This document shows, one piece after another, positions 2,880 to 43,690 of a stretch of 63,513 bases of DNA (the first letter of the stretch is position 1; every line of letters begins with the position of its first letter). The stretch comes from a virus (Duplodnaviria; Heunggongvirae; Uroviricota; Caudoviricetes). Under the pieces are notes generated by a model that made no database searches, was not told the origin of the DNA, and saw only the letters and a list, made by a program, of their open reading frames with translations. Where the stretch lies: IMG/VR virus record IMGVR_UViG_2585427777_000008, positions 1 through 63,513 of that record; one strand, given 5' to 3'. A program made the translations under genes and the position numbers.

Positions 2880-2909
2880 TGTTAGATGAATGGAATTAAT
2901 TTTCTAATA
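2880..2909. promoter_or_regulatory. operator-like inverted pair TGTTAGA-N16-TCTAATA
   Basis: Member of the dispersed TTCTAACA motif family; sits directly upstream of the 2988 ORF. Confidence 0.4.
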
Positions 2910-2987
2910 TAACCAACTTTTTGCCAGTCTATACAGAAATAACATTCTCATTATCATCCCCTCGGTCATTTCCTGCCTGGGGGATTA

Positions 2988-3380
2988 ATGGAGCATATCA
3001 GCAGCGCAGAAATTGCGGATATCATGATTAGGGCTGACTGCTATCTGACAGTCACCGAAATCACCACTCTAGCTAAAGAAAAATATCCTCACCTTCATGT
3101 TTCACGCGTAAGTGTAACCAACATCATTCGGCATTTTGTGCGGTCAAGCCGAGCTATTTGTGAGCTTGATGATCGTGTTTACCCACGGAAATACTGGTTG
3201 CATGGCCTGAACGGATATCAGTTCAAGGTGCGCGGGCGCACGCCTGAATACGGTAGCTTACTGGTTAAAAACTGTAGCAGGAAATCAGTCGAACAGGCGC
3301 GAAAAGAGCAACGAGAGCTGGTGGACATGGCGAATAAGCTGTGGAATGCCGCCGTTAAAAAGCGTGGTGTTGCTTTATGA
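2988..3380 (+). CDS. hypothetical protein; candidate late-promoter activator by position (Lpa-like)
   Basis: 130-aa ORF immediately upstream of pacA, preceded by an operator-like motif, as for lpa in P1. Assignment is by synteny only. Confidence 0.4.
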   Translation: MEHISSAEIADIMIRADCYLTVTEITTLAKEKYPHLHVSRVSVTNIIRHFVRSSRAICELDDRVYPRKYWLHGLNGYQFKVRGRTPEYGSLLVKNCSRKSVEQARKEQRELVDMANKLWNAAVKKRGVAL

Positions 3381-4741
3381 GTCTGGTTAATTGGGAGGAG
3401 CACCGCGCCCGCTTTATAGCGTTGCGTGAAGAAAAAGGGATCACTGTAAAGGAATACTGTGAGGAGCATGGCCTTAGCTTCAATACAGCCAGAAAGCATC
3501 TCAATATGAAAAAAAATGAGGTGCGGTCGCAGGTAAAGACAACAAAAAAAAGCACCAAATCACCTGAAAAAAAACGGGCGGGAAGAGCAACAAAAAAGCT
3601 GGAAGAGGGTGCAGAAAAAACAAAATTTACAGAAATTGACAATTCGCAGGGTGCAGGTTCTTTCCGAAGTATGCCAAGAAAGAAAACTTCGGATCATGAC
3701 AATAATACCAATAATAACAATGAGATAAAAGAATCTGTCAGGAGATCATGGCGCAAAAAAATGGCAAAAATGACCCCCGCCGAAGATAAATGCGCTTCAA
3801 AAACCGAGGGATCTTCAGCAATGATCCCTGGCGGTGCTGTGCAGCGTGCCACGTTGCCCACTACGAGTGTGGCTCGCGACATGATGAAGAACGGCGCAGA
3901 AGAGCACCTGCGGTTAGCAATTCAAATGGCGCAAGAACGCGCACTTCAGTACCAAAGCATTGTTGATCAGGAGGCCGAACGCCTACAGGCGGAGATAGAC
4001 GCCCTGGGTGATCAGCAGCCAGAAGGAATGCACCCTGGGCAGCGACTGCTCGGTCTAATCAGTGACGCGGCCTACTACATGAACGATTTTATCAGTAGGT
4101 TGGCAGCGATATATCAGTCCGAACAAAAGCTGCGACAGGGTGATGAAAAACTTCGTCAGGGTGCTCGCCAGCAAGCATTCAGAGAGGCCGAGGCCAAAGA
4201 AAAACTCGAATTAGCACGCCTACAGGCCGAACAGCGTGGCAAAGAGATTGAATATCGCATTGGCGCTGACGCACGCGCAGCCAGAGTTATCGCCGCCGCT
4301 ATACGTATGCGTGAGCGCGAGGAGCTGGACGATATCGGTGTTGCTGAATACATCGAGCGTCAGGGTGTCAGTGTTCCGGCTATCCTCGCGGCGCGCGCGG
4401 CGAAAGCTATCACTCTTCTCGAGCCTCCAGTTTCTGACATCAATGATGTTGATGATGAACAGCTGGACAAAGAAGCGAAGGAGTTTGCATCGCTTCAGGC
4501 TAACCATCCGCAATGGCTGGCAGAGCGCCGGGCGGATGTGGCAACCATTGTTGAAGATCTGGGGTGCGGAGATTACGACCACAATGGCGAGCGTAAGGCT
4601 GGGGAATTCGAGGCCAACGACGAAGAGTTGGATATTGACCCTTCGGCTACGGCTGAAATTTACGGTGATTATGATGCATCAGACGCAGGATATGACGCCG
4701 GAGATGATGATATCGCGATAGAACCGCCGGAGGACGACTAA
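3377..4741 (+). CDS. pacA: terminase small subunit PacA-like
   Basis: 454 aa with an N-terminal HTH-like region, central charged coiled region and acidic C-terminal tail; overlaps pacB start (ATGA at 4738-4741). P1 PacA-like architecture. Confidence 0.7.
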   Translation: MSLVNWEEHRARFIALREEKGITVKEYCEEHGLSFNTARKHLNMKKNEVRSQVKTTKKSTKSPEKKRAGRATKKLEEGAEKTKFTEIDNSQGAGSFRSMPRKKTSDHDNNTNNNNEIKESVRRSWRKKMAKMTPAEDKCASKTEGSSAMIPGGAVQRATLPTTSVARDMMKNGAEEHLRLAIQMAQERALQYQSIVDQEAERLQAEIDALGDQQPEGMHPGQRLLGLISDAAYYMNDFISRLAAIYQSEQKLRQGDEKLRQGARQQAFREAEAKEKLELARLQAEQRGKEIEYRIGADARAARVIAAAIRMREREELDDIGVAEYIERQGVSVPAILAARAAKAITLLEPPVSDINDVDDEQLDKEAKEFASLQANHPQWLAERRADVATIVEDLGCGDYDHNGERKAGEFEANDEELDIDPSATAEIYGDYDASDAGYDAGDDDIAIEPPEDD

Positions 4742-6249
4742 TGGCTGGTGGGCGCAAGATTAAATGCGTCACCAGCGATCCACGCTGGCGCGATATGGTA
4801 ATCAAATACCGCTACAACTTTACCCAGGCTGTTGTTGATATTTTCGGGATGTTTCCCTCCCACCAGCAGCAGGAGATTATCCAGTCCGTACAGCAAAAAG
4901 GGAGCAGAACCACTGTTACTTCTGGTCACGGTACAGGGAAATCGTCGTTAACGGCTATGTTGTTGCTGATTTATTTGATTCTGTTCCCCGATGCCCGTGT
5001 CATCATTGTTGCTAACAAGATAGGCCAGGTTAAAACAGGCGTATTCAAATACGTTAAACAGTATTGGGCGAATGCAGTTAAGCGTCACGGATGGTTACAG
5101 ACCTATTTTGTCCTGTCTGACACCATGTTTTATGAACGTTCCCGCAAAGGGATCTGGGAAGTTCTCTGCAAAGGTTATCGACTCGGTAACGAAGAAGCAC
5201 TGGCGGGGGGGCACGCGGCACATTTGCTTCTAATTCTGGATGAAGCATCAGGTATATCTGATAAAGCGATCGGCGTAATGACTGGCGCTCTGACTGAAGA
5301 AGATAACCGAATGTTGATGCTATCCCAGCCAACAAGGCCAAGTGGTTATTTCTACGATTCGCACCATTCTCAAGCTAAAACCCCAGACAACCCGAAAGGG
5401 ATCTGGACAGCAATTGTTCTTAACTCAGAAGAATCACCGTTCGTCACACCACAATTCATCAGGCAGAAACTCCTGGAATATGGCGGGCGAGATTCTATTG
5501 AGTACATGGTAAAGGTGCTTGGTCAGTTCCCTAGGGAGATTAACGGCTATTTGCTTGGTCGTGATGAATGCGATCGCGCTGCGCGGCGCAAGGTGTTGTT
5601 GGAGAAAAACTGGGGATGGGTGGCTACTGCTGACGTTGGTAACGGGCGAGACAAGTCAGTTCTTAATATCTGTAAAGTGTCTGGTCACCGGGAAAAGCGG
5701 CGTGTTGTTAACTTTAAGGTAATGGAAATGCCAGGGACTATGGACCCGCTGGCTTTTGCTGACTTTATATACAACGAATGCACGCCGGATAAATACCCGA
5801 ATATTACAATCGCGGTTGACGCAGACGGTTTTGGTTCAGATACCTGTGCGCAGCTGGTGCGCCGTGGGGCTAATCCGGTACGGATTCGGTGGGGGAAACC
5901 CATGTTTTCGAACAAAGACAAGGAGCGTTTTGTTAACCAGCGTGCCTACGCAAATATTATGGCTCGTGATGCCATAAAGTCAGGTCGTATGCGAATAGAC
6001 AGCGACCCTAAAACGGCAGAGCAAGCGTCAAAAATCCCCTTTTTACTTAATGAAGAAGGGAAGATGGCGATGATGCGCAAGGAGCACATGCGGCAAAAGC
6101 TGAACATCAAATCACCTGACCGATGGGATACCTACTGCTTTACAATGCTGGTGGACTATGTTCCTGCTAATGAAGATATCGGCGCTGAAATGGCTACCTT
6201 CCGCGATCAGGTTCTTGCAGATGTAGAAATGCCAGATCTGGATATTTGA
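4741..6249 (+). CDS. pacB: terminase large subunit PacB-like
   Basis: 502 aa with Walker A (SGHGTGKSS), Walker B (LLILDEASG) and a C-terminal Asp-rich nuclease-like region (VDADGFG). Confidence 0.8.
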   Translation: MAGGRKIKCVTSDPRWRDMVIKYRYNFTQAVVDIFGMFPSHQQQEIIQSVQQKGSRTTVTSGHGTGKSSLTAMLLLIYLILFPDARVIIVANKIGQVKTGVFKYVKQYWANAVKRHGWLQTYFVLSDTMFYERSRKGIWEVLCKGYRLGNEEALAGGHAAHLLLILDEASGISDKAIGVMTGALTEEDNRMLMLSQPTRPSGYFYDSHHSQAKTPDNPKGIWTAIVLNSEESPFVTPQFIRQKLLEYGGRDSIEYMVKVLGQFPREINGYLLGRDECDRAARRKVLLEKNWGWVATADVGNGRDKSVLNICKVSGHREKRRVVNFKVMEMPGTMDPLAFADFIYNECTPDKYPNITIAVDADGFGSDTCAQLVRRGANPVRIRWGKPMFSNKDKERFVNQRAYANIMARDAIKSGRMRIDSDPKTAEQASKIPFLLNEEGKMAMMRKEHMRQKLNIKSPDRWDTYCFTMLVDYVPANEDIGAEMATFRDQVLADVEMPDLDI

Positions 6250-6294
6250 CATCCTCCACGCCCTGAAGGACGGGGTTTTACGGCGCACCGGATA

Positions 6295-6316
6295 AAGCCC
6301 CGGCAATGCGGGGCTT
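6295..6316. terminator. GC-rich hairpin between convergent pacB and c1-like genes
   Basis: AAGCCCCG-GCAATG-CGGGGCTT stem-loop in the 70-bp gap between two convergent stops; T-run is weak. Confidence 0.4.
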
Positions 6317-6320
6317 GTGA

Positions 6321-7358
6321 TTACCAGAGTTTAGCGGCGTGCTGTGTTTGGGAGAAAGTGAACCCGTAACGTTCTTCTATGGTTTTACCGTATCTTTTCC
6401 GCGCGTCTGTCAGTTTTATGCCTGTCAGGTCATCTCCGGATGTCATCATTACGTCTAACAACTCCAGATCCATTTTATTCAGTCTCGCCATCGCTTCGCG
6501 TGCTGTCTGTATTTTACGCTCAATGATATGGCGAATAGCCGGATCGGCTTCCTCAAGCATTTTGGCTGATTTGTTCTTTAAGCTCTCATTGCGGATGTCG
6601 ATGTTTCGCAAGATGTATGACTTCGCAACATAGCTTGGTTGGTGTTTCTCCAGATCGCGAACGCGATAGAGACTAAAGTCACCAAGCAGGCCGCAAGGTA
6701 TCGACTCAACCCCAGAATAAATAGTAATGCTGCGACGTTCGCCGACATTATTAACAACGGGCACTGTGGTGTTCGGAAGTTTTGCGAACACTAAGGCTCC
6801 GTGTGCGCCTACCCTGAATCGTGACAGAGCATTGCTGCCTTCAATGTTTGTTGTAAGCACTACATCTGTGTATCCATCTTTGCGCGCCCGGTAAACTTCC
6901 CCTTCAGGTTCTGATGCGAAAAAACGGCGCTCTTCTTCAAGTGCACCAACAATCTGCGAAAATATCTTGTTTTTCAGGCTTTTCTTTATAATTGCATCAT
7001 ATTTTTTGAGCAGATTTTCGCGCGTAAATGAGCGGGTGGTGGTCGCGCTTTGCACAACAATATGCGTGCTTTGATTTGTGTCCTCGATAATGAATGGGAT
7101 CGGAGAATATACAGACTCAACAATGTTAGACGCTTTGCCGTCAGCGTTACGGCACAAGTCAACAAAGGCTTTCCATTCTGTGAGGCACTTTTCAGCTTCT
7201 TCTAGCACATTCTGATCATGTGTTAGTGCAACATGGCGGAATTCCTCGCCGGCATAACTGGTATCATGGAAAACAGAGTTTGCGACCACCAGCTCTTTCC
7301 ACCGTGCAGCGGTTTGCAGGAACCGTTTGTACTCTTTCTCGATCGACTTCTTACTCAT
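6321..7358 (-). CDS. putative C1-like immunity repressor (assignment by position)
   Basis: 345-aa ORF between pacB and the rox site, transcribed away from rox as c1 is in P1; operator-like motifs lie in its upstream region. No motif-level confirmation. Confidence 0.4.
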   Translation of the reverse strand: MSKKSIEKEYKRFLQTAARWKELVVANSVFHDTSYAGEEFRHVALTHDQNVLEEAEKCLTEWKAFVDLCRNADGKASNIVESVYSPIPFIIEDTNQSTHIVVQSATTTRSFTRENLLKKYDAIIKKSLKNKIFSQIVGALEEERRFFASEPEGEVYRARKDGYTDVVLTTNIEGSNALSRFRVGAHGALVFAKLPNTTVPVVNNVGERRSITIYSGVESIPCGLLGDFSLYRVRDLEKHQPSYVAKSYILRNIDIRNESLKNKSAKMLEEADPAIRHIIERKIQTAREAMARLNKMDLELLDVMMTSGDDLTGIKLTDARKRYGKTIEERYGFTFSQTQHAAKLW

Positions 7359-7376
7359 TATTCCTACTCGATTTAG

Positions 7377-7386
7377 TTTTCTAACA
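7377..7386. promoter_or_regulatory. operator-like motif TTTTCTAACA
   Basis: 19 bp upstream of the c1-like start codon; dispersed motif family. Confidence 0.4.
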
Positions 7387-7461
7387 TAAAATTACTATGA
7401 CAAATCTATGCCGAATAACAGGGTGAGTAAAGGATCAAGATGTGTTTTTTTATCATCAAAT

Positions 7462-7471
7462 TTAGAAAATT
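7462..7471. promoter_or_regulatory. operator-like motif (inverted orientation, TTAGAAAATT)
   Basis: Second copy in the c1-like upstream region; a third copy (AATTTCTAAC, 7554-7563) overlaps the left arm of rox. Confidence 0.3.
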
Positions 7472-7559
7472 CCGCTTAAAAACTGCCTGGCATAACTTAA
7501 AGCCCACACCAGCAATGCATTGCCCATCTGCGCGGAAAGGAAAAAATTTCCTAAATTTC

Positions 7560-7591
7560 TAACTTTAAATAATTGGCATTATTTAAAGTTA
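7560..7591. other. rox: rox-type site-specific recombination site (Dre target)
   Basis: TAACTTTAAATAATTGGCATTATTTAAAGTTA: perfect 14-bp inverted arms around a 4-bp core; its reverse complement is the rox sequence described for phage D6. Lies 150 bp upstream of the recombinase gene. Confidence 0.85.
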
Positions 7592-7743
7592 GGCTATAAT
7601 CATGTGTAGATGAACAGTGTTGACATCACTGAAAATACGTGCCTCGAATCAAAGGCTTGTATTTTGAAAATTAACTTATAGCTACCCTGTCATTTTTATA
7701 TTTTTCGCGTAGCGTCATCTGTATATAGAGGTCAAATAGTTTC

Positions 7744-8772
7744 ATGAGTGAATTAATTATCTCTGGCAGTTCCGGTGGTTTTCTGCGCAACATTGGCAAA
7801 GAGTACCAGGAAGCCGCAGAAAACTTTATGCGGTTCATGAATGACCAGGGAGCTTATGCGCCGAATACTCTGCGCGACCTCCGTTTGGTGTTTCATTCCT
7901 GGGCGCGCTGGTGTCACGCTCGCCAGCTTGCCTGGTTTCCGATCTCACCAGAAATGGCCCGCGAGTATTTTCTTCAGCTGCATGATGCCGATCTGGCTTC
8001 GACCACCATTGATAAGCACTACGCCATGCTGAACATGCTGCTTTCGCATTGTGGCCTTCCACCACTTTCGGATGATAAAAGTGTTTCTCTGGCTATGCGG
8101 CGCATCCGGCGCGAAGCGGCAACTGAAAAAGGCGAACGAACAGGCCAGGCTATACCGCTGCGGTGGGACGATCTGAAACTGCTCGACGTCCTGCTGTCCA
8201 GGTCAGAACGGCTGGTGGATCTGCGCAACCGGGCTTTTCTCTTTGTTGCATACAATACGCTGATGCGTATGTCGGAAATCTCGCGTATTCGTGTAGGAGA
8301 TCTGGACCAAACAGGTGACACTGTCACGCTACATATTTCACACACGAAGACAATAACGACCGCCGCCGGGCTTGATAAGGTGCTTTCCCGTCGCACTACC
8401 GCTGTGCTGAATGACTGGCTGGATGTTTCCGGGCTTCGCGAACATCCTGACGCAGTGCTGTTCCCGCCGATACACCGTAGCAATAAGGCCAGGATCACGA
8501 CAACGCCCCTTACTGCACCTGCAATGGAGAAAATATTCAGCGACGCCTGGGTGTTGCTGAATAAAAGAGATGCTACGCCAAACAAAGGAAGATACCGGAC
8601 GTGGACCGGGCATAGTGCACGCGTCGGGGCCGCTATTGATATGGCTGAAAAGCAGGTGTCTATGGTGGAGATCATGCAGGAAGGAACCTGGAAGAAACCG
8701 GAAACACTTATGCGGTATCTTCGCCGTGGCGGCGTGTCTGTGGGGGCTAATAGCCGCCTGATGGACTCGTAA
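7744..8772 (+). CDS. dre: Cre-family tyrosine recombinase, Dre-like
   Basis: 342 aa colinear with Cre: conserved SLAMRRIRRE, AYNTLMRMSEI, GHSARVGAAIDMA and C-terminal Tyr region (ETLMRYLRR). Adjacent rox site. Confidence 0.9.
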   Translation: MSELIISGSSGGFLRNIGKEYQEAAENFMRFMNDQGAYAPNTLRDLRLVFHSWARWCHARQLAWFPISPEMAREYFLQLHDADLASTTIDKHYAMLNMLLSHCGLPPLSDDKSVSLAMRRIRREAATEKGERTGQAIPLRWDDLKLLDVLLSRSERLVDLRNRAFLFVAYNTLMRMSEISRIRVGDLDQTGDTVTLHISHTKTITTAAGLDKVLSRRTTAVLNDWLDVSGLREHPDAVLFPPIHRSNKARITTTPLTAPAMEKIFSDAWVLLNKRDATPNKGRYRTWTGHSARVGAAIDMAEKQVSMVEIMQEGTWKKPETLMRYLRRGGVSVGANSRLMDS

Positions 8773-8778
8773 ATTAAA

Positions 8779-8788
8779 TTTCTAACAC
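8779..8788. promoter_or_regulatory. operator-like motif TTTCTAACAC
   Basis: Immediately after the dre stop and upstream of the 8846 ORF. Confidence 0.35.
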
Positions 8789-8845
8789 ATCTTTTTAGAT
8801 TAACGCCTTTGCTGTAAAGTACCCTCGCCTATTTAGGAGGGTGCT

Positions 8846-19931: not shown

Positions 19932-19973
19932 AATGCATACCGACTCTGTTTTGTTCCGAGTGGTAAAATAATA

Positions 19974-20003
19974 TGTTAGAAAACTAAAATCAATGTTCTA
20001 ACG
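19974..20003. promoter_or_regulatory. operator-like inverted pair TGTTAGAAAA-N12-TTCTAACG
   Basis: Lies between the phosphatase stop and the start of the 18936..19931 gene, at the head of the leftward operon. Confidence 0.4.
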
Positions 20004-20028
20004 CATTTTGAGTGCGTAAATGATTTGA

Positions 20029-23391: not shown

Positions 23392-23423
23392 TGTGTTAGA
23401 AAATCAATTTTGAATATCTAACA
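23392..23423. promoter_or_regulatory. operator-like inverted pair TGTGTTAGAAAA-N13-TCTAACA in a divergent promoter region
   Basis: Between the divergently transcribed 22576..23226 gene and the ref-like gene. Confidence 0.45.
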
Positions 23424-23471: not shown

Positions 23472-24050
23472 ATGCAGAAACAGAGTTATTGGGAGAAACA
23501 GAGACAAAAAGCCATGCAAAAATTGGCTGACCCGGCCTGGCGAGAGGAACAAAGGGCAAAGCGCCTTCAACAAGCTCAACGCCAGCAGCAGCGAGCGAGA
23601 GAAAAAGCCGCATCGCCTGAATATCGGCAAAAGAAAATTGAAAAAGCAAAGCAATATGAACAGCGGAGAAAAGATAAAGCTGTATCCGCTCCGTCCAAAA
23701 AAACACGCACGTCACGCGGCCTGAAGGGCAGATCACTCACAGCTGATGAACGCCGGATACAGACCGCTATCGGTACTCTCCCCTGCATTGCCTGCCATAT
23801 TCACGGACAACATAGCCCAGTAGTATCCCTGCACCATATCTTCGGGAGAACGGCAGAGAACGCGCATAAATATGTCCTCCCTTTGTGTAAATGGCACCAC
23901 CAGTACGCAGCGCCAGCCGAGGTCCGAGAACAATATCCCTGGCTGGTCCCTGTTCATGCTGATGGAAAAATAGGCGGAAAAGCAGATTTCATACGGCACA
24001 ATGCCGATGAAATGGCGTTGTATCAGATGGCGATTGAATTGATAAATTAG
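23472..24050 (+). CDS. ref: Ref-like HNH endonuclease (recombination enhancement function-like)
   Basis: 192 aa; highly charged Lys/Arg/Gln-rich N-terminal half and C-terminal HNH-like Cys/His cluster (CIACHIHGQH...CKWHH). Operator-like motif upstream, as for P1 ref. Confidence 0.6.
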   Translation: MQKQSYWEKQRQKAMQKLADPAWREEQRAKRLQQAQRQQQRAREKAASPEYRQKKIEKAKQYEQRRKDKAVSAPSKKTRTSRGLKGRSLTADERRIQTAIGTLPCIACHIHGQHSPVVSLHHIFGRTAENAHKYVLPLCKWHHQYAAPAEVREQYPWLVPVHADGKIGGKADFIRHNADEMALYQMAIELIN

Positions 24051-24060
24051 TTTTCTAACA
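24051..24060. promoter_or_regulatory. operator-like motif TTTTCTAACA at the head of the immI-like region
   Basis: Directly after the ref-like stop, upstream of the candidate immunity RNA region. Confidence 0.4.
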
Positions 24061-24381
24061 TTTTAAGTTGAATTGTAAATTTCTCCGATGTACATTCACT
24101 ACCGATTGGCACACCGGTCAACTTTTTGAGACAAACTATTTAGTTTTTCGTATGATTGCCGCCGCCATACCAATGGCGGTGCAATATAGGTGGCTGAAAA
24201 GCCCCCGTTGACTCACGGTGTTCCAGCCTTTATTGCGCCGCCACCAGACCGTGGAACAGTCGATGGCGGCTCCGAAAGCAAGGAGTCACTACACTATGAA
24301 CAACTACAGTCTTTTCCCATCACTCGTCGTCCACCACTCACGCGATAATCTGCATTCTTTACTCGCGCCGGGGGTGTCAAA

Positions 24382-24549: not shown

Positions 24550-24643
24550 AATACTGACTGTTGCGCCCTGGCATTATCGTGGGGTATATTTCTACGGCAC
24601 CTTAGAAAAACGGGTGCCGGGATTGGAACCCCGGATAATGTCA

Positions 24644-24667
24644 AAGGCGACACAGACGCCGAAAGCG
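24644..24667 (+). terminator. rho-independent terminator
   Basis: AGACGC-CGAAA-GCGTCT hairpin followed by seven T residues. Confidence 0.65.
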
Positions 24668-24689
24668 TCTTTTTTTGTGTCACGCCATC

Positions 24690-24830
24690 GCACAGCCATA
24701 CGTAGCGTTTAGCTCAGAGATCAATGGTAGTGCTGGCTGGGCTGCCGAAAGGCAGGCCGGTTCCCTTTGACGCCGGTAGTTCCAACCCAGTCAGTGCTAC
24801 CGCCATTGAGATTGGAACCTCACGCGGTAG
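24690..24830 (+). ncRNA. candidate c4-like antisense immunity RNA (boundaries approximate)
   Basis: Structured non-coding stretch with a tRNA-like 5' part (GCGTTTAGCTCAG...) and a GNRA hairpin (CTGCC-GAAA-GGCAG). CCTTTGAC at 24755-24762 is complementary to GTCAAAGG at 24843-24850, which overlaps the Shine-Dalgarno of the icd-like ORF, and to an upstream copy at 24630-24637. Confidence 0.35.
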
Positions 24831-24861
24831 CTCCTTAACTTAGTCAAAGGAGGCTGCCAAT

Positions 24862-25077
24862 ATGGCTACTATCCCTACCCCAACTCATTCTGAATTTATC
24901 TGGCGTTTCTATTCCTGCCAAAAACACCTGTATATCTGCGTCATGGCTGCTACCGAAGCAGAGGCGCGCTCATACCTTCCCGAAGAACCCTGCATTTTTG
25001 CTGCTCGCTTCACTCTTGATGCGATGGAGATCCTCAATTACTGGAATCTGCCGATGAACTGCGTGGAGGTACACTGA
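24862..25077 (+). CDS. Icd-like small protein (by position)
   Basis: 71-aa ORF whose RBS is the candidate antisense target; its stop overlaps the antirepressor start (ATGA at 25074-25077). Confidence 0.4.
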   Translation: MATIPTPTHSEFIWRFYSCQKHLYICVMAATEAEARSYLPEEPCIFAARFTLDAMEILNYWNLPMNCVEVH

Positions 25078-26003
25078 TGAATCTGTCCATCTCTCAAAAA
25101 GCGACAATGACAAGTATTGAGATCGCGGAGCTGGTGGGTAAGCGTCCTGACAACGTTAAACGCACCATTGAACACCTGGCGGAACGGGGCGTAATAACTT
25201 TTCCTCAAATTGAGGAAAAGCCCACCGCAGGCCGCCCGGCGAGCTATTACGTCTTCGAAGGCGAACAAGGCAAGCGCGATAGTATTATCGTCGTCGCGCA
25301 GCTCTCTCCCGAATTCACCGCCCGGCTGGTGGACCGCTGGCGCGAACTGGAGAGTGCCAGGGGACCGTTAAAATCAAAAGCCGAAATTCTGGCTGAAATG
25401 GCGCAAATGCATCTTGAGCATGAACGCCGGATCAACGCCGTAAATGCCCAGGTAGCCGAGGTATCGGCACAAGTATCGATGGTCGCTGAAACACTCGAGC
25501 AAATAAAGAAAGGCAATATTCCGGAAGGCTACATTGGCTACCGCCAGCTGGCGGCGAAATGTGGCCTGACTGAAGCCAAATGTCGCAACCTGGTTAACGC
25601 TTACCGGATTCCAACCGATACGCATGAGTTTTTAACGCCAGATGGTTTGCTTGCCCGACGCTCCATTGTGGCCTTAGCCCCCTTCCGGAAAGCCTTCAAG
25701 CAGGTTATGTCGGAGGCAGAACCACGCAACAAACGCTGGTATCATCCGAAGATGGGGCTGTTTCAGGCAATCCATCATCCTTTACCGGAAATCCCAAAAG
25801 ATAATCTGTCACTGCATACCGCCAGAGAGAAGATCAGAAGTGGATATGCAACGGTATGCCGTCGCGCCTCATGGTCTGAAGGTGTATGGGTATGGCCCGA
25901 AGGCGGATCAAGGAAGCACTGGCGCACTATCCGGGATGGGAAAATCCATGCTATTGATTTAGCGCCAGAGGATATGGTTGCTATGGACTGGATTGTTAGT
26001 TAA
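25077..26003 (+). CDS. ant: antirepressor-like protein (Ant/Rha-type N-terminal domain)
   Basis: 308 aa; N-terminal MTSIEIAELVGKRPDNVKRTIEHL resembles phage regulatory/antirepressor N-terminal domains; coupled to the icd-like ORF. Confidence 0.55.
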   Translation: MNLSISQKATMTSIEIAELVGKRPDNVKRTIEHLAERGVITFPQIEEKPTAGRPASYYVFEGEQGKRDSIIVVAQLSPEFTARLVDRWRELESARGPLKSKAEILAEMAQMHLEHERRINAVNAQVAEVSAQVSMVAETLEQIKKGNIPEGYIGYRQLAAKCGLTEAKCRNLVNAYRIPTDTHEFLTPDGLLARRSIVALAPFRKAFKQVMSEAEPRNKRWYHPKMGLFQAIHHPLPEIPKDNLSLHTAREKIRSGYATVCRRASWSEGVWVWPEGGSRKHWRTIRDGKIHAIDLAPEDMVAMDWIVS

Positions 26004-28508: not shown

Positions 28509-29697
28509 TTTCCTGAAAAACCAGGACGGGCGCTATATCACTGATGGCCTGTCCTCTAAGGACTTCACGCGTTTATTCGACCTTATCAGTAAAGAACAAA
28601 CCCGTAAGCGCCGACAAGCTCACCGGACGCTGACGCCCGGCAGACTGAGGAACAAATCCGCCGAAGATATTCTCAAGTTGGGGAAGAAGAAAGGCGGCAC
28701 GTTCTTTACGCGAGACGATCTGAAAGGCTTCGAAAAGCTACGGAGTAAAACGCGCGAAAAATATGACAGTAAGACGGCAGGCATCACATACGCCCAGCTG
28801 GTGGCATCCAGCCAGGCTATCGATATTAAGCGTGCAAATAACGCCGTGGATGACGGATCTGGTATCAAAAGAGCTACACCCGTATCTCTTCGCCACAATG
28901 TGATTAATATCCGCGTAGAAGCATCGGATATATCCGTCCACCAGCACCATATCGTCCGTATACGCTTTGAAGAATGGGATCAGATGGTCGATGACATCGC
29001 AGAAGACGATAAATCAGCTCTGAAAATCACTAAATCACTGTGCGCCGGGCGGGTGTCTTTCGATTGTGACTGTGGTCGTCATCAATACTGGTATCGTTAC
29101 ATCGCTACTGCGGGTAACTTTGCCTTGGCCCCGCCAAAAGAATACGCCTATCCAAAAGTTCGTAACCCTAAGCTACAAGGCGTCGCCTGTAAACACGTGA
29201 TCCACTCAATGACGCGGTTACAGTCCGCCAGTTGGCAAATGAGTATTGCTCGTGCGTTACAAAAGGCCGCAACGCAAATTGCATTTGGTGACGATCGCCG
29301 CCGTACAACTAAACACTTCTCAAAAGAAGACGAGAAGGAGTTTAATCGCAATCGTAGCAGTAAAACGAACGTTGAAGCCGCCAAACGCGAATGGAGGCTC
29401 TATCAGAAACGCCAGGCCGCTTTAAGCACAAAACTGGCAAAGGACAACGGGAAGATTGACAAGCTACGTGACCAGCTGACCAGGGCCAGAAAGTTGTCCG
29501 ATGCACAGAAAAAACGGGCAGCAGCAAAAGAAGCAGCCTTGCAACGTGAGAAACAGAAAAACAAGGAGCTTCAGCAACGCCTTGCCGATCAATTCGCACT
29601 GAAGAAGCAAGCGTTCATTGATGCACTGGTCATGGCAGGAACGTCACCTGAGCAAGCTGAAAAAATGTTTATGGAGTACGTGAAGAAAGGTTCTTGA
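28501..29697 (+). CDS. hypothetical protein with SWIM-like zinc-finger signature and basic coiled-coil C-terminus
   Basis: 398 aa; CxC...CxH pattern (FDCDCGRHQYW...GVACKHVIH) followed by a Lys/Arg/Gln/Glu-rich helical tail. Confidence 0.5.
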   Translation: MPDFLKNQDGRYITDGLSSKDFTRLFDLISKEQTRKRRQAHRTLTPGRLRNKSAEDILKLGKKKGGTFFTRDDLKGFEKLRSKTREKYDSKTAGITYAQLVASSQAIDIKRANNAVDDGSGIKRATPVSLRHNVINIRVEASDISVHQHHIVRIRFEEWDQMVDDIAEDDKSALKITKSLCAGRVSFDCDCGRHQYWYRYIATAGNFALAPPKEYAYPKVRNPKLQGVACKHVIHSMTRLQSASWQMSIARALQKAATQIAFGDDRRRTTKHFSKEDEKEFNRNRSSKTNVEAAKREWRLYQKRQAALSTKLAKDNGKIDKLRDQLTRARKLSDAQKKRAAAKEAALQREKQKNKELQQRLADQFALKKQAFIDALVMAGTSPEQAEKMFMEYVKKGS

Positions 29698-33732: not shown

Positions 33733-33746
33733 AAAACACATACAAT

Positions 33747-33780
33747 TGTGTTAGATAATTGAATAGAATTTTCTAACACA
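33747..33780. promoter_or_regulatory. operator-like perfect inverted repeat TGTGTTAGA-N16-TCTAACACA
   Basis: In the 59-bp gap upstream of rdgC. Confidence 0.45.
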
Positions 33781-33791
33781 ATTGGTGAAAC

Positions 33792-38525: not shown

Positions 38526-39159
38526 TTAATAACTCCTTAACCAACATCTGGATTTCACCTTTAGCTTTCCCGTTGTCCATCTCAACAACGCCCTTCCCTT
38601 CAGCCATACAATCGCGGTAAACCTTGCGATCGCGAATGATGGTTTTCAGCAACTTCAGTTGCGGATATTCAGCCAGGTACTCTTTGGCCTCATTGGCTTC
38701 ATTCACAACCGGATTGGATGGGGCCATTGTTAAGACTGCGCACGCCTTAATGCTAGGATTAGGCATCAGATCCAAAGCCTCTTCAAAGACTTCAACAAAA
38801 TGCGCCAGAGTGTCTAAATCTGGCTGAGATGGCCTGAATGGAACAAGCAAAACATCCGCCGCAGTAATACCGGTGCGCATTTCTTTGCTATCACGACCAG
38901 CGGTATCAACAACCACAAATTCATAACGCTTGTCCAGATCAAGAAGTGTTTCACGAATATTCCCAAACTTCTGGACGCAATGAATTACTGGAGAAACCTC
39001 TGCCGCATTACGGTCCGATGCCCAACGGGCAGATGTTCCTTGCTTATCTGCATCAAGTAGAACTACGTCCTTATTTGCGCGGGCAAGCTCCGCACAAATA
39101 TTTACGCTGGTGGTTGATTTGCCACAGCCACCTTTTTGGCTGGCTACCAATATAATCAT
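38518..39159 (-). CDS. parF: ParF-like small ParA partition ATPase
   Basis: Start taken at MIILVASQKGG; deviant Walker A QKGGCGKST; about 213 aa. Confidence 0.8.
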   Translation of the reverse strand: MIILVASQKGGCGKSTTSVNICAELARANKDVVLLDADKQGTSARWASDRNAAEVSPVIHCVQKFGNIRETLLDLDKRYEFVVVDTAGRDSKEMRTGITAADVLLVPFRPSQPDLDTLAHFVEVFEEALDLMPNPSIKACAVLTMAPSNPVVNEANEAKEYLAEYPQLKLLKTIIRDRKVYRDCMAEGKGVVEMDNGKAKGEIQMLVKELLSD

Positions 39160-39194
39160 ATCCGTTCCTCGGTGTGATTTTGGTATCAAAACGG

Positions 39195-39380
39195 TTCCAG
39201 ATAAGAGCCTTTTTGATGCGGGACAGGCTCTATAATGGAGTCATGAATGTTTGGCAAAGTATAACATCAATCAGACCAAATACACCTAATATTGCATCCT
39301 ATTTAACACGAAATCAGCCCCAAATTGGAACCAGATACAAAATTGCACCATAACAGCACCTAACTGGTTCCAGATTAACA
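39195..39380. repeat. centromere-like repeats upstream of parF (GGTTCCAGAT / GGAACCAGAT family)
   Basis: At least three copies of TGG(TT/AA)CCAGAT(A/T)A plus CACCA(A/T)T motifs in the 290-bp parF upstream region. Confidence 0.4.
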
Positions 39381-39401
39381 CCAATTAGACACCATTAATG
39401 C

Positions 39402-39428
39402 ATAAAAAAGGCTGCAATTTGCAGCCTT
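39402..39428 (-). terminator. rho-independent terminator after parR (minus strand)
   Basis: AAGGCTGCA...TGCAGCCTT palindrome preceded on the + strand by an A-run, i.e. followed by a T-run on the minus strand. Confidence 0.5.
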
Positions 39429-39446
39429 AAACCAGCACATCTTCTG

Positions 39447-39791
39447 TCAATCAGGTAGAGAGTCAGCCAGATTGCGCGCCGACGCGCTTTTGGCAACAAC
39501 TTGCTCCTTCACTGGCTCAATGGAGGCAGGGCGCTCCTCAACCGCAGCTGGTAGTTCCAGGAAGGATGCCAGCATTTTTCGGATCAGCTCCGGGTTATTG
39601 TCTTCGGTCAGCAGGGAAGCCAGTAATCCTGGAAGCCTGCTATCGACTTCTCCCAGCGCAAGCCCTGCCAACAATGCGGTTCTTGCCATATCGCTATGTT
39701 TTTTTATCTTCTCGCTAGCCGCCTTTTCATTGGCATAAGCCTCTGGGCGAAGATAAATCATCACTTTCTTACGTTCCTGAGACATGGACAT
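39447..39791 (-). CDS. parR: ParR-like adaptor
   Basis: 114-aa ORF immediately downstream of parM; segment ARTALLAGLALGEVDSRLPGLL parallels ParR/StbB proteins. Confidence 0.55.
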   Translation of the reverse strand: MSMSQERKKVMIYLRPEAYANEKAASEKIKKHSDMARTALLAGLALGEVDSRLPGLLASLLTEDNNPELIRKMLASFLELPAAVEERPASIEPVKEQVVAKSASARNLADSLPD

Positions 39792-39798
39792 TACCTCG

Positions 39799-40779
39799 TT
39801 AACCGATTGCTTTCAGGCCATGAACAAGAGCAAGTTGCGGGTCATCCGCCACGAAGAAACGGTCATCACGAATATTAACTTGCTCGCGAATTGCATCTGC
39901 CACCAGCGGTGCGCCACCACCGATCACCATGACATGCGTATATCCTTTAAAGTCGCCAATCACATCAAGAACGCGGGTACGCAGACGGTCAATGCTTGCG
40001 GCAATGGCCTTTTTCACATCACCAACCGCTGATGGGTCATTGATATTGTCGTTCAGATAATCTTCATCGTGGCGGTTAATAATGAGCTGATCGACATTGT
40101 AATTTGACGTTTCGGTATTGGCTCTGGCAAGTGCTTGCCTTACTTCCCTGGTGACCAGTGATACACCAAGATTCGAATCGCCAAAAACACGGGAAACTGC
40201 CGTCATTTGCCCGGCGACCATTGAAACATCAAGGGTAGTTCCACCCAAATCGACGATAAGAACAGAATGGGCAGGGTTCAGATTGTCGCACAGGCCAATT
40301 CCTGCCGGAATAGACTCCGGGCGTACCGTAACTTTCTTAATCGTGAACACATTGCCTTTATTCAGCGTGACGGGGCGCATAAGGCTGGCTTTCTTGCGCT
40401 CGATGTTATCGAGATTGTATTGCGCGTCGACGTCGTAAAACTCCGCCAGAGGCAGCGTGACCACAATTTCTACTTCCTGCGGCTCAATGCCACTTGTCAG
40501 CAGGGCATGGTGAACAGCCAGGACGTTAAGCGGGCTGTATTGCCATTCCACGTTATTCGTCGGCAGAACATCTGGCGAGATCAAATCATACGAATACTTT
40601 TCGTCGTCAATGACATAGTTAAACGGCTTGCCAGCACCAAATGTTGCTGACCATCCGCGCTTAAAGCTGTTAGGGCTGATGTGAGTGCGAGTTTCCCCGT
40701 CGTGCTCCCACAGCATTTTGATATTGGTTGAACCATCATCGATAAAAATGCGCATCTTCTTGCTCCACTTCTGAGACAC
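39799..40779 (-). CDS. parM: ParM-like actin-type segregation ATPase
   Basis: 326 aa; actin-fold phosphate motifs FIDDGSTNIK and LIVDLGGTTLD, colinear with ParM/StbA. Confidence 0.85.
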   Translation of the reverse strand: MSQKWSKKMRIFIDDGSTNIKMLWEHDGETRTHISPNSFKRGWSATFGAGKPFNYVIDDEKYSYDLISPDVLPTNNVEWQYSPLNVLAVHHALLTSGIEPQEVEIVVTLPLAEFYDVDAQYNLDNIERKKASLMRPVTLNKGNVFTIKKVTVRPESIPAGIGLCDNLNPAHSVLIVDLGGTTLDVSMVAGQMTAVSRVFGDSNLGVSLVTREVRQALARANTETSNYNVDQLIINRHDEDYLNDNINDPSAVGDVKKAIAASIDRLRTRVLDVIGDFKGYTHVMVIGGGAPLVADAIREQVNIRDDRFFVADDPQLALVHGLKAIG

Positions 40780-40780
40780 A

Positions 40781-40936
40781 TTTGAGAATCAAAATGTAAT
40801 TTTAAAAGAGAAGCACCCAAAAATCCACACCAAACGAGATAAAGAAGAGCGATTGTTGAGTTTATTTTGAGAATATCTTAATCACCCACCGAATGATGGT
40901 CTGATAGTGAGATTTATTTGAGAACGAATTGAGAAT
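40781..40936. repeat. parC-like centromere repeats (TTGAGAA(T/C) iterated)
   Basis: At least four copies of TTTGAGAAT/TTGAGAAC in the AT-rich region upstream of parM. Confidence 0.45.
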
Positions 40937-41021
40937 ACAAAAATATTCCGAAATTTAACTCTCCGTTTGAATGACGAAATAACAAAGTGATGACAATAGG
41001 AGGATAACCAGGAGGTGAAGA

Positions 41022-41306
41022 ATGAGCGCAATAGCCACCAGCGACACCCTTTGTTCTGGTCACGGAGGATTTCCGCCGCGACTGGTAGCTGAAACCGTTC
41101 CCTGGTTCACCGTTAACGGTAAGCCAGTTGTTGTAGATGGTGCCATGTTTCCCAGTCACACTGACGGTAACAGTGCACATCCAGGGGCAGCTGTATCGAC
41201 GCGAGTATGGTTTTCGATAGGTGGAAAGGGAGTTGTCTGTGTAGGCGATCCGCTTTCTTGTGGTTCTGTTATCGCCAACGGCGAGGATATTTTTCAGGTT
41301 GCATAA
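41022..41306 (+). CDS. PAAR-like spike-tip protein
   Basis: 94 aa, Gly-rich, with repeated G.P.V.G/VGD...C..GS..V segments typical of PAAR cone proteins. The overlapping minus-strand ORF 40914..41318 is rejected. Confidence 0.55.
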   Translation: MSAIATSDTLCSGHGGFPPRLVAETVPWFTVNGKPVVVDGAMFPSHTDGNSAHPGAAVSTRVWFSIGGKGVVCVGDPLSCGSVIANGEDIFQVA

Positions 41307-42112
41307 TGCTTGATTCAATAGGTGAAGTTAAAGCCTTCAAAATTCTGTCAGATGCCGGTATCTCTACACCAGAATCTATAACCATAAGCCGGGCAGCTTC
41401 TGTAAAAGCCTCATCGCTCGCCAGCGCCATACACGGGATAGTTCACGCCGATAAAACCTATCCTGATTCTGTTTCGGCCTGGACCACTCAATTGCTTGGC
41501 TTTTCTGAACAGCTCAATGAGGCCAGCAAAGCGTCTTCATTACTGGCTGATTCTCTTTCCCCATACACCAAGCCATCAGAATTGTTACAGATGAAGATTG
41601 GCTGGGAATGCTACGCAAAAGGTAACGAGCTGACCCCCATACCTGCTTTCGCCCTTGTTGAGGGAATGGGGAATGTTTCCATTCCGCAATCTCTAACGGA
41701 CGCATTGACGGCGCTAAAACTTGATGCTCTGAAAACCGCCATGAACGCCATTAACGCAAAAATTGAAGCTGCCGGAAGTGCTGGTGGTGGTGAAAGCAAT
41801 GGTGGACAGGGTGGTGCTGGGGGCGCTCAGGCTCCAGTCATTACTCAGGATGAAATTGATGCTTTACGGGAAGCAGTGACAGCCGCCGAAGTTTTACTCT
41901 CCGAAATTAACTCAGCAAGTGAGGGTGTCGTAGCCCTTACAGGTCGCATTAAAACGTCAACCACTCAGGCAACCAAAGGTTTAGAGAACGCTGTCGCCAT
42001 CACGTTAACTGGTTCTCTACTGGATGATGCAGTAATGAGTCCGGCAATCAGTTTAATCATGCCACAAGGCGTTATCGATGCGCTCCAAAAGAACACCAAA
42101 AAGGAATCATAG
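41306..42112 (+). CDS. hypothetical protein (Ala/Ser/Thr-rich; possible virion-associated)
   Basis: Start at the ATG overlapping the PAAR stop (TAATG); 268 aa. Confidence 0.45.
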   Translation: MLDSIGEVKAFKILSDAGISTPESITISRAASVKASSLASAIHGIVHADKTYPDSVSAWTTQLLGFSEQLNEASKASSLLADSLSPYTKPSELLQMKIGWECYAKGNELTPIPAFALVEGMGNVSIPQSLTDALTALKLDALKTAMNAINAKIEAAGSAGGGESNGGQGGAGGAQAPVITQDEIDALREAVTAAEVLLSEINSASEGVVALTGRIKTSTTQATKGLENAVAITLTGSLLDDAVMSPAISLIMPQGVIDALQKNTKKES

Positions 42113-42168
42113 AAACACCACTTAGGCACACAAAAGGATGTAAATTGGTACATGTTTAACACCAAATA

Positions 42169-42642
42169 ATGAACCTGGAGAGGATGGTTTTGAAAAAGAT
42201 AATTTTGATTGTAATTGCGCTTTTAGCCATTTCTGGAATTTACCGAACAACGACGGCAGTTATCGAACACATCAGGTATGTCCGATCGCTTGAAGACTCA
42301 AAATCACAACTGGAAAGCACGAACAACACGCTTTCTACCGCATTACAGTTAAGTGAGAAGGCTCGCTCAGCCATGCTGACCGAAAACGAAAGAATTAAAG
42401 CACTGGAAAAGGAGTACCAGCGCAAAACAGCAGAACTGAATGCCAACCTAATCAAACAACGAGAGGAAAGCCAGAATGAAATCACTCGCCTTGAAAATGC
42501 GTTACGCCGTGCTGGGATTAACGATGTGCGTGTGCCTGATGACGTTATCAGGATGCAGCGGGAACGGGCAAAAGCCATCAACCAGCGTGCCAGTGAAAAT
42601 TACCGTAGAAGCCACCAGCAAGCCGCAGGCAAATCTGATTGA
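42169..42642 (+). CDS. inner-membrane spanin (Rz-like)
   Basis: 157 aa; N-terminal transmembrane helix followed by a long coiled-coil periplasmic region. Confidence 0.55.
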   Translation: MNLERMVLKKIILIVIALLAISGIYRTTTAVIEHIRYVRSLEDSKSQLESTNNTLSTALQLSEKARSAMLTENERIKALEKEYQRKTAELNANLIKQREESQNEITRLENALRRAGINDVRVPDDVIRMQRERAKAINQRASENYRRSHQQAAGKSD

Positions 42643-42808
42643 TTATTCCCCTTGTCTGGTGCCAGAGGACACGCCAGTGCTGTTAAACAAGTATCCAACA
42701 TACACTGAACAGTTATTCAGCACGATCGATGAATGCAACCAACGAAACGCACTGAATAACCAAAGGAATAGGGAGATTTGGGAAGGGAAGGGTAATCACG
42801 GCTCCTGA
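42476..42808 (+). CDS. outer-membrane spanin lipoprotein (Rz1-like), overlapping Rz in another frame
   Basis: Signal-like segment with lipobox LSGC; starts inside the Rz gene in a different frame and extends beyond it. Start codon uncertain. Confidence 0.45.
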   Translation: MKSLALKMRYAVLGLTMCVCLMTLSGCSGNGQKPSTSVPVKITVEATSKPQANLIDYSPCLVPEDTPVLLNKYPTYTEQLFSTIDECNQRNALNNQRNREIWEGKGNHGS

Positions 42809-43254
42809 AGCCAGATATCCTGGCTGTCAGCTTCTTCGAAACCGTGACAGACGTTAAAGTCACTCAAGCGATACTGACGCTGACGGCCTCTATTTCGCTC
42901 ATACCAATGCATATATCCACCAGCAAATGCCAGCGGGCAATCGCTATAGTCTATGTAGCCAATGCCATTCCCCAAACGCGCTTCGCGCGCCCCGGCTTTC
43001 CAGGACAGCAGAAAAGAGTCACGATCTGCCAGCATGACAACAAAATCATCCGGATCGCCTATGCAGTGAAGAATCCCGGCTTTGCACAACTGTTTTAGTG
43101 CTTTCGACTGTCCCAGAATGTCTTCACCGTAATACTGAAAACAATCATCAACAACAGCGGGATAGCCAGCAGGGGGATTCAGGCTGGTTGGTATAGCTGA
43201 CGCGATCGCCAGCATTAAGCGATATTGTGTTTTTGATGGATTCGCGTGACTCAT
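42796..43254 (-). CDS. hypothetical protein
   Basis: 152-aa ORF downstream of the 43273 gene, same strand. Confidence 0.45.
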   Translation of the reverse strand: MSHANPSKTQYRLMLAIASAIPTSLNPPAGYPAVVDDCFQYYGEDILGQSKALKQLCKAGILHCIGDPDDFVVMLADRDSFLLSWKAGAREARLGNGIGYIDYSDCPLAFAGGYMHWYERNRGRQRQYRLSDFNVCHGFEEADSQDIWLQEP

Positions 43255-43272
43255 TTTGCCCCCCCTGTTTAC

Positions 43273-43665
43273 TCATTGTCGCCATGCGTTTTTTAACTCT
43301 GGAATATCTGCCATTTCAATTAACTTTCGCAGTCCAGCACTGACTTTCCCGTTGCCAATCACAGCAAGCCAGTCTCTTACTGCTTTCGGCATATAGAGCG
43401 TAGCGGTTACCGGCTCTTCAACTCTCGCCGGGCATCCACATACAGGCCATTTAATGGATTCCATGACTTCGGAGGCCGGGGTGAGGGCGGGGACATTAAG
43501 AATATCTCTACCAGAAAACTGGATGACGATTCGTTCAGCGAGGGAGAGTATCTCACTTTCAGCAAGAATTGATGCCAGTTGCGCCTCAACAAGAAAGCGG
43601 CTCGTTGTGTTCAGGGAGTGGCTTTTCGCGCCATTTTTATACGAAACAAAGATCCGATACGCCAT
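43273..43665 (-). CDS. hypothetical protein
   Basis: Start moved to MAYRIFVSYKN (43665) so that the operator-like motif at 43679-43690 lies in the promoter, not the coding region. Confidence 0.45.
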   Translation of the reverse strand: MAYRIFVSYKNGAKSHSLNTTSRFLVEAQLASILAESEILSLAERIVIQFSGRDILNVPALTPASEVMESIKWPVCGCPARVEEPVTATLYMPKAVRDWLAVIGNGKVSAGLRKLIEMADIPELKNAWRQ

Positions 43666-43678
43666 AACCGTAATGATT

Positions 43679-43690
43679 TGTGTTAGAAAA
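43679..43690. promoter_or_regulatory. operator-like motif TGTGTTAGAAAA
   Basis: 14 bp upstream of the revised start of the 43273..43665 gene. Confidence 0.4.

Follow-up and report, generated by a model that had tools for sequence, protein, structure and literature searches.

The 63,513-nucleotide sequence analyzed here (IMG/VR virus record IMGVR_UViG_2585427777_000008, Caudoviricetes; "the window" denotes this whole stretch) is a D6-like, P1-related plasmid prophage. It was aligned in reverse orientation to Escherichia phage D6, which carries Dre/rox, with ~89–98% identity interrupted by mosaic replacements, and many E. coli plasmids are ~96% identical to it. The open reading frame at 6321–7358 (−) is the counterpart of the gene annotated c1 in both D6 records; both records annotate rox and cix sites, and neither annotates operators. 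An original prediction, made from the letters of the window, had proposed that a motif dispersed over its intergenic regions marks the regulon of this C1-type repressor. The analysis presented below argues that the motif is very probably the operator set of the D6-type C1, which would keep lytic genes silent in the prophage.

The candidate operators and the genes most directly concerned are the following; bit scores are those of the 21-nt position weight matrix (PWM) described in the next section, with one value per half-site for bivalent operators.

2877–2912: bivalent candidate operator of lpa, half-sites 2877–2897 (−) and 2892–2912 (+, core TCTAAT); 18.1 + 24.0 bits; counterpart of P1 Olpa
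2988–3380 (+): lpa, late-promoter activator; PF25716, E 1.4e-56; 31% identical to P1 Lpa
6321–7358 (−): c1, 345-aa repressor distantly homologous to P1 C1 and presumed to bind the motif
7369–7389 (+): c1-proximal candidate operator, 11 bp ahead of the start codon of c1; 25.9 bits, leave-one-out 23.2; counterpart of P1 Oc1
7462–7471 (−): degenerate block ATTTTCTAAA resembling the operator, upstream of the predicted c1 promoter; PWM score below 0, conserved in position and not in exact sequence
7547–7567 (+): weak, doubtful site on the left end of rox; 16.5 bits, leave-one-out 8.8; positional analogue of P1 Oc1e/P4cre
8770–8790 (+): single candidate operator directly after the dre stop codon, heading the orf117-orf116-dut operon; 27.4 bits, leave-one-out 25.6
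19971–20006: bivalent candidate operator between ppp and a pdcB-like (DUF968) gene, upstream of the leftward pdcB-like operon; 27.1 + 22.3 bits
23391–23426: bivalent candidate operator in the divergent orf88-like/ref intergenic region; 28.2 + 20.4 bits; conserved; counterpart of P1 Oref
24043–24063 (+): single candidate operator that overlaps the stop codon of ref and precedes the immI-like unit; 26.0 bits; corresponds to P1 Omat by position and Oc4 by function
24597–26003 (+): immI-like module with isrK-like RNA, C4 RNA, icd (24862–25077) and a Rha-type antirepressor (25077–26003), from Rfam, Pfam and the D6 annotation
33746–33781: bivalent candidate operator 10 bp upstream of hrdC (hrdC-dcm-dmt operon); 24.7 + 24.6 bits; counterpart of P1 Odmt
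43678–43698 (−): single candidate operator with the highest score of all, ahead of the leftward orf52/orf53-like genes and divergent from capsid gene 23; 30.3 bits, leave-one-out 29.1
43727–43747 (+): sub-threshold operator-like sequence near the 43678 site; 13.6 bits, the next-best match after the 13 sites

Statistics and shape of the motif

With non-coding DNA defined by a transferred gene map, k-mers were ranked there without any prior. TTTCTAAC came first at k = 8 (7 copies vs 0.35 expected, Bonferroni 6e-4), and TCTAACA at k = 7 (9 vs 1.05 expected, Bonferroni 7.5e-3). Counted over the entire window, the exact 8-mer TTCTAACA shows what is by itself a modest excess (7 copies vs 1.79 expected), and all seven copies fall within the 11.4% of the window that is non-coding (P ~2.5e-7). 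Ranking k-mers over the whole window did not surface the motif, as Chi and codon-related words dominated there. A home-made expectation-maximization motif finder run on the non-coding DNA was dropped; captured by GC/AT heterogeneity, it returned only GC-rich pseudo-motifs.

We then evaluated flank information around every 6-mer with at least 8 non-coding copies: the top 4 of 469 anchors all belonged to the TCTAAC motif, indicating a conserved element much longer than 8 nt. The oriented alignment of the sites yielded the consensus AAATTTAATTTTCTAACACAA, which was used as a 21-nt PWM to scan both strands. Overall, the element is asymmetric and ~19–21 nt long (AAATTnATTTTCTAACAcA), its information has no internal dyad, and its TCTAAC core is sharp and invariant. 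The PWM sets 13 sites (16.5–30.3 bits) apart from the next-best match (13.6 bits), with leave-one-out scores ranging from 8.8 to 29.1 bits and reaching ≥15 bits for 11 of the 13. Given that a null preserving local composition produced on average 0.66 matches at ≥14 bits, and at most 4, the predicted dispersed motif is real and above chance.

These 13 sites occupy 9 loci of the window, as four inverted pairs and five single sites. All are non-coding, as had been claimed for the motif; at 43679–43690 this holds only with the D6-annotated start of the neighboring gene. The loci originally placed at 2880–2909, 7377–7386, 8779–8788, 19974–20003, 23392–23423, 24051–24060, 33747–33780, and 43679–43690 were all recovered. 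By contrast, a weak half-site proposed at 1201–1209 was discarded: it scores <8 bits, lies in a GC-rich context, and adjoins a Tn3-family transposon end outside the D6 homology.

All four inverted pairs in the window have the form GTTAGA-N16-TCTAAC, i.e., hexamers exactly 16 bp apart (17-nt offset) and centers 22 bp apart. The inverted arrangement suggested earlier was thus borne out, and the variable 12–16 bp spacing that went with it was not. In simulated random placements, at least one pair of such geometry arose in only 0.6% of cases. Four strong single sites (7369, 8770, 24043, and 43678) have no partner half-site at N16, and single sites score higher on average than paired half-sites (27.4 vs 23.7 bits), as expected if one strong asymmetric site suffices.

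The C1 protein and its covariation with the motif

The sequence comparisons identify the product of 6321–7358 as a real but distant homologue of P1 C1, in agreement with its designation as c1-like in the original prediction. Full-length matches to phrog_1678 were obtained for both proteins (E 1.9e-158 for the window C1, 2.6e-140 for P1 C1), and BLASTP aligned them collinearly with 22% identity over 167 aa (E 1e-7). The homology is distant, since a tblastn search (E ≤ 1e-5) with the window C1 against 50,697 phage records retrieved D6 only and gave no direct link to P1. The D6 C1 is 89.6% identical to that of the window. Homologues of the window C1 carry PF27008 and are themselves named "phage repressor protein"; the window C1 itself matched neither a helix-turn-helix (HTH) nor any other family in the local Pfam copy, and sequence and profile searches gave no PDB match. 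D6-type C1 proteins have a ~60-aa helical C-terminal extension without equivalent in P1 C1. Across PLSDB, 157 plasmids encode a protein matching the window C1 (E ≤ 1e-3), ~130 of them at ≥60% identity, in a graded allele series.

The strongest available argument for C1 as the probable binder is that the motif changes with the type of C1. The relatives compared included elements of Enterobacter (L009, C1 42% identical to that of the window), Pantoea (L011 and L012), Citrobacter (L013), and Leclercia, while the plasmid of L008, a resistance plasmid carrying only a phage fragment, was left out. As a positive control, the prior-free pipeline run on P1 put words of the annotated C1 operators (ATTGCTCTAAT) on top, with 12 copies of GCTCTAAT vs 0.29 expected (Bonferroni 3.6e-12), so that the pipeline does find C1 operators. 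In elements whose C1 is 90% (D6), 81%, 73%, and 42% identical to that of the window, TTTCTAAC was still the top non-coding motif. In three elements from Leclercia, Pantoea, and Citrobacter, with 27–29% identical C1, the window PWM had 0 matches, and (A/T)TCTAAGG replaces the motif (TTCTAAGG in Citrobacter: 7 copies vs 0.19 expected, Bonferroni 7.7e-6). The TCTAAGG-type motif is found at syntenic positions: it precedes c1, lpa, ref, and rdgC and directly follows the stop codon of a cre-like gene. Operator positions thus appear to be conserved while the operator sequence follows the repressor, and all three classes (P1, D6, and TCTAAGG) keep the TCTAA core.

Within the D6 class, phylogenetic footprinting found 62% of operator columns invariant vs 29% of other intergenic columns (Mann-Whitney p 6e-8), i.e., the sites form conservation islands in diverging spacers. 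The window, D6, L006, and L007 together contain 11 pairs, seven of them beyond the window, and every one has the geometry GTTAGA-N16-TCTAAC. L009 has one convergent pair, TCTAAC-N7-ATTAGA at 29198–29218, and pair geometry is thus not uniform even among elements with a TTCTAAC core.

A lead on how C1 might contact DNA came from structure prediction. An AlphaFold2 model of the window C1, built from 12 homologues, reached a predicted local distance difference test score of 83 and a predicted template modeling score of 0.50. Searched with Foldseek against the PDB, its only significant matches were four entries of the E. coli replication terminator Tus bound to Ter (E 1e-7 to 5e-6, probability 1.00), with ~305 aligned columns but a template modeling score of only 0.40–0.45; the next match had an E of 0.14. 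A fold search of BFVD produced nothing significant, a profile search against PDB sequences detected no sequence similarity between Tus and the window C1, Ter and the operator compared by eye showed no convincing similarity, and no paper in the literature collection searched mentions C1 repressor and Tus together. A Tus-like fold would fit the operator format, and we consider the chances that C1 adopts it about evenly balanced, given that they hinge on a single predicted model.

Sites, neighboring genes, and the candidate regulon

From these data we propose that the 345-aa C1 recognizes the long asymmetric site as one molecule per site, a stoichiometry suggested by analogy with P1 and by the strong unpaired single sites. 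It would occupy ~ten promoter regions dispersed across the genome and prevent transcription by promoter occlusion. Repression of lpa, a predicted regulon target and switch to the late genes, would silence all late genes. Other targets would include ref with the divergent early operon, hrdC-dcm-dmt, the pdcB-like operon, the dut operon after dre, orf52/53, the immI-like antirepressor unit, and c1 itself through autoregulation; in D6, repL and a second immI copy, outside the window, would be controlled through the same sites. In the pairs, the 22-bp center-to-center spacing would place both half-sites two helical turns apart on the same DNA face, where C1 would probably bind cooperatively, and one pair could cover either two back-to-back promoters or a −10 element plus the start site.

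The genes downstream of the sites were largely those named in the original prediction: Lpa, Ref (PF16786), RdgC/hrdC (RdgC Pfam match, E 5e-103) heading the methyltransferase operon, and the immI-like unit. Its claim that their P1 counterparts are C1-controlled also held, as the P1 RefSeq record annotates Olpa, Oc1a–e, Oref, Omat, Oc4, and Odmt at corresponding places. Sites without a P1 counterpart are those after dre (8770–8790), between ppp and the pdcB-like gene (19971–20006), and before orf52 (43678–43698). In D6, the motif occurs at 15–17 places, including upstream of repL (the OrepL counterpart) and of both immI copies; the repL site and that of the first c4/icd/ant copy lie outside the window. 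A relaxed promoter scan placed half-sites within or adjoining −35/−10 elements at ref/orf88, hrdC, c1, dre, and immI, mostly with weak matches.

Around c1, the proximal operator includes an invariant island, TTTTCTAAcATAAA, that extends out to the relative with 42% C1 identity, and probably mediates autoregulation of c1. A conserved candidate c1 promoter (TTTACT 7431–7426, TAGATT 7408–7403) is bracketed by this operator, located in the leader, and by the degenerate distal block, an arrangement that would permit autoregulation, possibly with looping. Looping has been proposed for the regulation of P1 c1. The distal block at 7462–7471 had been listed as an instance of the motif, which its negative PWM score does not bear out; it persists as a positionally conserved TTAGAAAA block, kept within scrambled sequence in D6, L006, and L007, with a full GTTAGAAAAT nearby in L009. 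At 7487–7512 (−), between rox and the predicted c1 promoter, the c1 strand carries a terminator-like hairpin with a T-run, which could insulate c1 from leftward transcription from the rox side.

The proposed site at 7554–7563 overlapping rox is present as a 16.5-bit match, yet its leave-one-out score drops to 8.8 bits, rox itself makes up part of it, and conservation is lacking (TATAAC in D6, CCTAAC in L009). It is located 6 bp upstream of the −35 element of the dre promoter (TTGGCA-16-TATAAT, 7573–7600 (+), 11/12 matches), which lies inside rox (7560–7591) and is kept in all relatives examined. D6 has a site identical to the post-dre operator at 89945–89965. In the window, this operator is followed by a degenerate inverted half (TCTAAC-N7-TTTAGA at 8781–8799 (+)), near the convergent P1-type geometry and unlike the N16 pairs.

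Among the pairs, the right half-site at lpa is invariant in 5 relatives, and the ppp/pdcB-like pair is conserved in D6 and L007, its left half also in L009. The spacer of the orf88/ref pair is AT-rich with back-to-back −35-like hexamers, TTGATT (−) at 23407–23402 and TTGAAT (+) at 23410–23415, so that each half-site would sit within the −35/−10 spacer of one predicted promoter. The hrdC pair, found in D6 at 64113/64128, spans about −10 to +15 of a predicted promoter. As for the single sites, P1 Omat also overlaps the ref stop codon, and the counterpart of 43678–43698 in D6 lies at 54200–54220, just before orf52. Downstream of the ref stop codon site, the immI-like module, a predicted regulon target, begins with an isrK-like Hfq-binding RNA (24597–24675 (+), 62.7 bits) directly upstream of a C4 antisense RNA (RF01695, 24720–24807 (+), 77.1 bits). 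D6 has two immI-like copies and the window one.

Elsewhere in the window, positions 1–1113 (~1.1 kb at the left end) hold the 3′ portion of a Tn3-family transposase gene, inserted relative to D6, and a tRNA-Met (CAT anticodon) follows the transposon end at 1383–1458. The Chi octamer GCTGGTGG is the most over-represented 8-mer of the window (47 copies vs ~3.7 expected; 29 (+) and 18 (−), e.g., 1298, 2750, and 3317 (+), 4860 and 7286 (−)), and is also enriched in non-coding DNA of the Pantoea and Enterobacter relatives. Direct repeats of ~20 bp (GGTGTAAGATTTGCCCTCAA and variants) at 50976–51243 and 52112–52337, on both flanks of the repA-like gene 51304–52092 (−), are plasmid replication iterons analogous to P1 incA/incC, and the enriched non-coding word CCCTCAA belongs to them.

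Alternative readings and relation to known systems

Several other explanations of the motif have to be weighed. D6-type C1 might bind the inverted pairs as a dimer, in which case the true operator would be a 36-bp palindrome-like unit and the singles half-operators with weaker or different roles, unlike P1, where one C1 monomer occupies each site. The fixed geometry fits this idea, with 8 of the 13 sites in such pairs and all 11 pairs alike across four elements, and the helical C-terminal extension of D6-type C1 could mediate self-association. However, the best-scoring and best-conserved sites are singles without an N16 partner, several pairs keep only one good half in D6 and L009, and the sole significant fold match of the C1 model is a monomeric protein binding asymmetric sites, which together make a dimeric operator rather unlikely. 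Alternatively, the binder could be another factor, either of the host (a nucleoid or regulatory protein) or of the phage (a different regulator), with the motif lying in control regions of early genes by coincidence. The element is AT-rich, like many sites of nucleoid-associated proteins, and the P1 ref control region is a target of H-NS as well (PMC4713147). Still, such a factor would have to account for a sharp invariant TCTAAC core, for positions matching the annotated P1 C1 operators, and for one site directly before c1. The motif, moreover, switches with C1 type at kept syntenic positions between plasmids of closely related Enterobacterales, so that we regard a host or other factor as improbable.

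The motif might also be a promoter element, either an Lpa-dependent late-promoter box or a special −35/−10 part, given that TCTAACAT contains a −10-like TAACAT and that some sites overlap predicted hexamers. Yet TCTAAC sites are found ahead of early genes and of lpa itself, face the downstream gene in no constant orientation, and occur as inverted pairs, all of which leaves a promoter element very improbable. Late and morphogenetic operons are instead marked by a separate word, AAATCACA, followed ~8–10 nt on by a −10-like hexamer (12752, 27040, 30482, 43754, 52389, and 59766, all (+)) and preceding mat, gene 7, capsid gene 23, pmgB-sit, and tail-fiber R. This word is probably the "−22 box" of D6-type Lpa-dependent late promoters, corresponding to the P1 box AAGTGACTT, with Lpa only 31% identical. 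As to chance, AT-rich intergenic composition might have seemed sufficient when TTCTAACA was absent from the top over-represented 8-mers genome-wide and 1 of 100 shuffles reached 7 copies in a first simple test. This explanation is refuted by the top rank in non-coding DNA, the 11 sites at ≥15 bits vs 0.66 expected, the identical pair geometry, and the conservation islands.

A further word was observed in the TCTAAGG-class plasmids: TGATCA/GTGATCA(C) is strongly enriched in non-coding DNA of the Citrobacter and Pantoea elements (in Citrobacter, 18 copies vs 2.3 expected). Given its resemblance to P1 AAGTGACTT, it may be the late-promoter box of these plasmids; a Dam site lies within it.

Some observations weigh against the reading of the motif as the C1 operator set. 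Covariation rests on a handful of lineages, and the enrichment in Leclercia and Pantoea alone is modest (Bonferroni 7e-3 to 3.5e-2). Most sigma-70 promoters predicted around the sites are weak (8–9/12 matches); a strict scan gave promoters at only 2 of 3 regions tested, with few near sites, and at lpa the sole strict-scan promoter lies ~18 bp downstream of the pair. We found no description of D6-type operators in the D6 records or the searchable literature, which did not cover two primary D6 papers. Finally, P1 Coi, Lxc/Bof, and Ant1 had no homologue in the window or D6 by tblastn (best E ≥ 0.8; 0.8–1.8 for Coi/Lxc), although small, fast-evolving proteins such as Coi and Lxc could escape such a search; a D6-like plasmid has likewise been reported to lack Lxc (PMC6799933). 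The D6-type circuit would accordingly differ from that of P1, and repressor inactivation or modulation must proceed differently or use proteins diverged beyond recognition.

If the motif is indeed the C1 operator, its sequence has practical uses. E. coli, Salmonella, and Shigella commonly harbor D6-like and P1-like phage-plasmids, many of which carry resistance genes. Knowledge of operators would allow immunity groups to be assigned from sequence, i.e., which elements exclude or co-repress each other, and would provide a map of the early regulon. C1 and its operator would also be defined parts orthogonal to those of P1, for engineering beside the widely used Dre/rox. A Tus-like fold, if true, would hint at how C1 recognizes an asymmetric site, as we found no solved structure for the C1 family in the PDB by sequence or profile.

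A wider hypothesis can be offered tentatively, with the balance tilted slightly against it. C1 proteins of P1-like phage-plasmids, P1's included, might be Tus-fold, non-HTH monomers clamping long asymmetric sites, with a shared TCTAA core and flanks read by class-specific residues. This would give at least three sequence-predictable immunity classes, and the doubled operators of D6 would have been re-wired to a divergent N16 layout silencing two back-to-back promoters. The predicted classes would be P1 (GCTCTAAT), D6 (TTTCTAACA), and Citrobacter/Leclercia/Pantoea (TCTAAGG), and strands around residues 30–46 and 86–99 are candidate flank-reading regions of C1. Resemblance to Tus-Ter concerns the predicted fold only: Tus is a monomer clamping a long asymmetric DNA site, but it arrests replication forks instead of repressing transcription, and the Ter sequence is unrelated to the operator. 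Lambda-type HTH repressors differ in turn, since the window C1 has no Pfam HTH and its single sites are asymmetric and not palindromic.

The closest known system is the C1 regulon (immC) of P1 and P7. P1 has 22 dispersed asymmetric C1 operators (PMC8546580); their asymmetric consensus spans 17 bp, and C1 controls lpa, repL, ref, dmt, and kilA (PMC8546580; PMC4713147). Both systems use long, asymmetric, A/T-rich operators with a TCTAA core, present in more than 10 copies over a ~90-kb plasmid prophage. Shared locations are lpa, c1, the flank of lox/rox, ref, the ref stop codon, the immI unit with C4 RNA, hrdC-dmt, and repL; in both, some operators are doubled and c1 is probably autoregulated. 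The original description of the motif as resembling yet differing from the P1 operator was accurate. The recognition sequence is AAATTnATTTTCTAACAcA in the window vs ATTGCTCTAATAAATTT in P1, and the A/T arm lies 5′ of the core in the window and 3′ in P1. A PWM of the annotated P1 operators had 21 matches at ≥15 bits in P1 and 0 in the window or D6, and the window PWM matched no annotated P1 operator at this threshold. With the TCTAA core alone in common, the element is predicted to be heteroimmune to P1 and P7. When the P1 operator was reverse-complemented and matched to that of D6 through the AAATTT arm, ~10/17 positions agreed, driven by A/T, and the alignment on the TCTAA core was preferred.

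Further differences concern layout and partners. Doubled operators are convergent in P1 (TCTAAT-N6-ATTAGA in Oban a/b and Oc1 a/b, with 17-mers overlapping by 6 bp) and divergent with N16 in the window. C1 has 283 aa in P1 vs 345 aa in the window, with ~22% identity. The window has an operator after dre, whereas P1 has none after cre, and it lacks the ban operon operator; no Ant1/2 homologue is detectable, the antirepressor being of Rha type. The Citrobacter, Leclercia, and Pantoea regulons deduced here, for which we found no description in the literature, share a homologous C1 with C-terminal extension and a syntenic asymmetric motif with a TCTAA core, but differ in the TCTAAGG core and in the flanks, and the Pantoea pairs are convergent (TCTAAG-N6-CTTAGA), as in the bivalent geometry of P1. 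Taken together, this suggests that the window carries a heteroimmune C1 regulon with a divergent-pair architecture, of a kind known from P1 and with a variant layout of paired operators.

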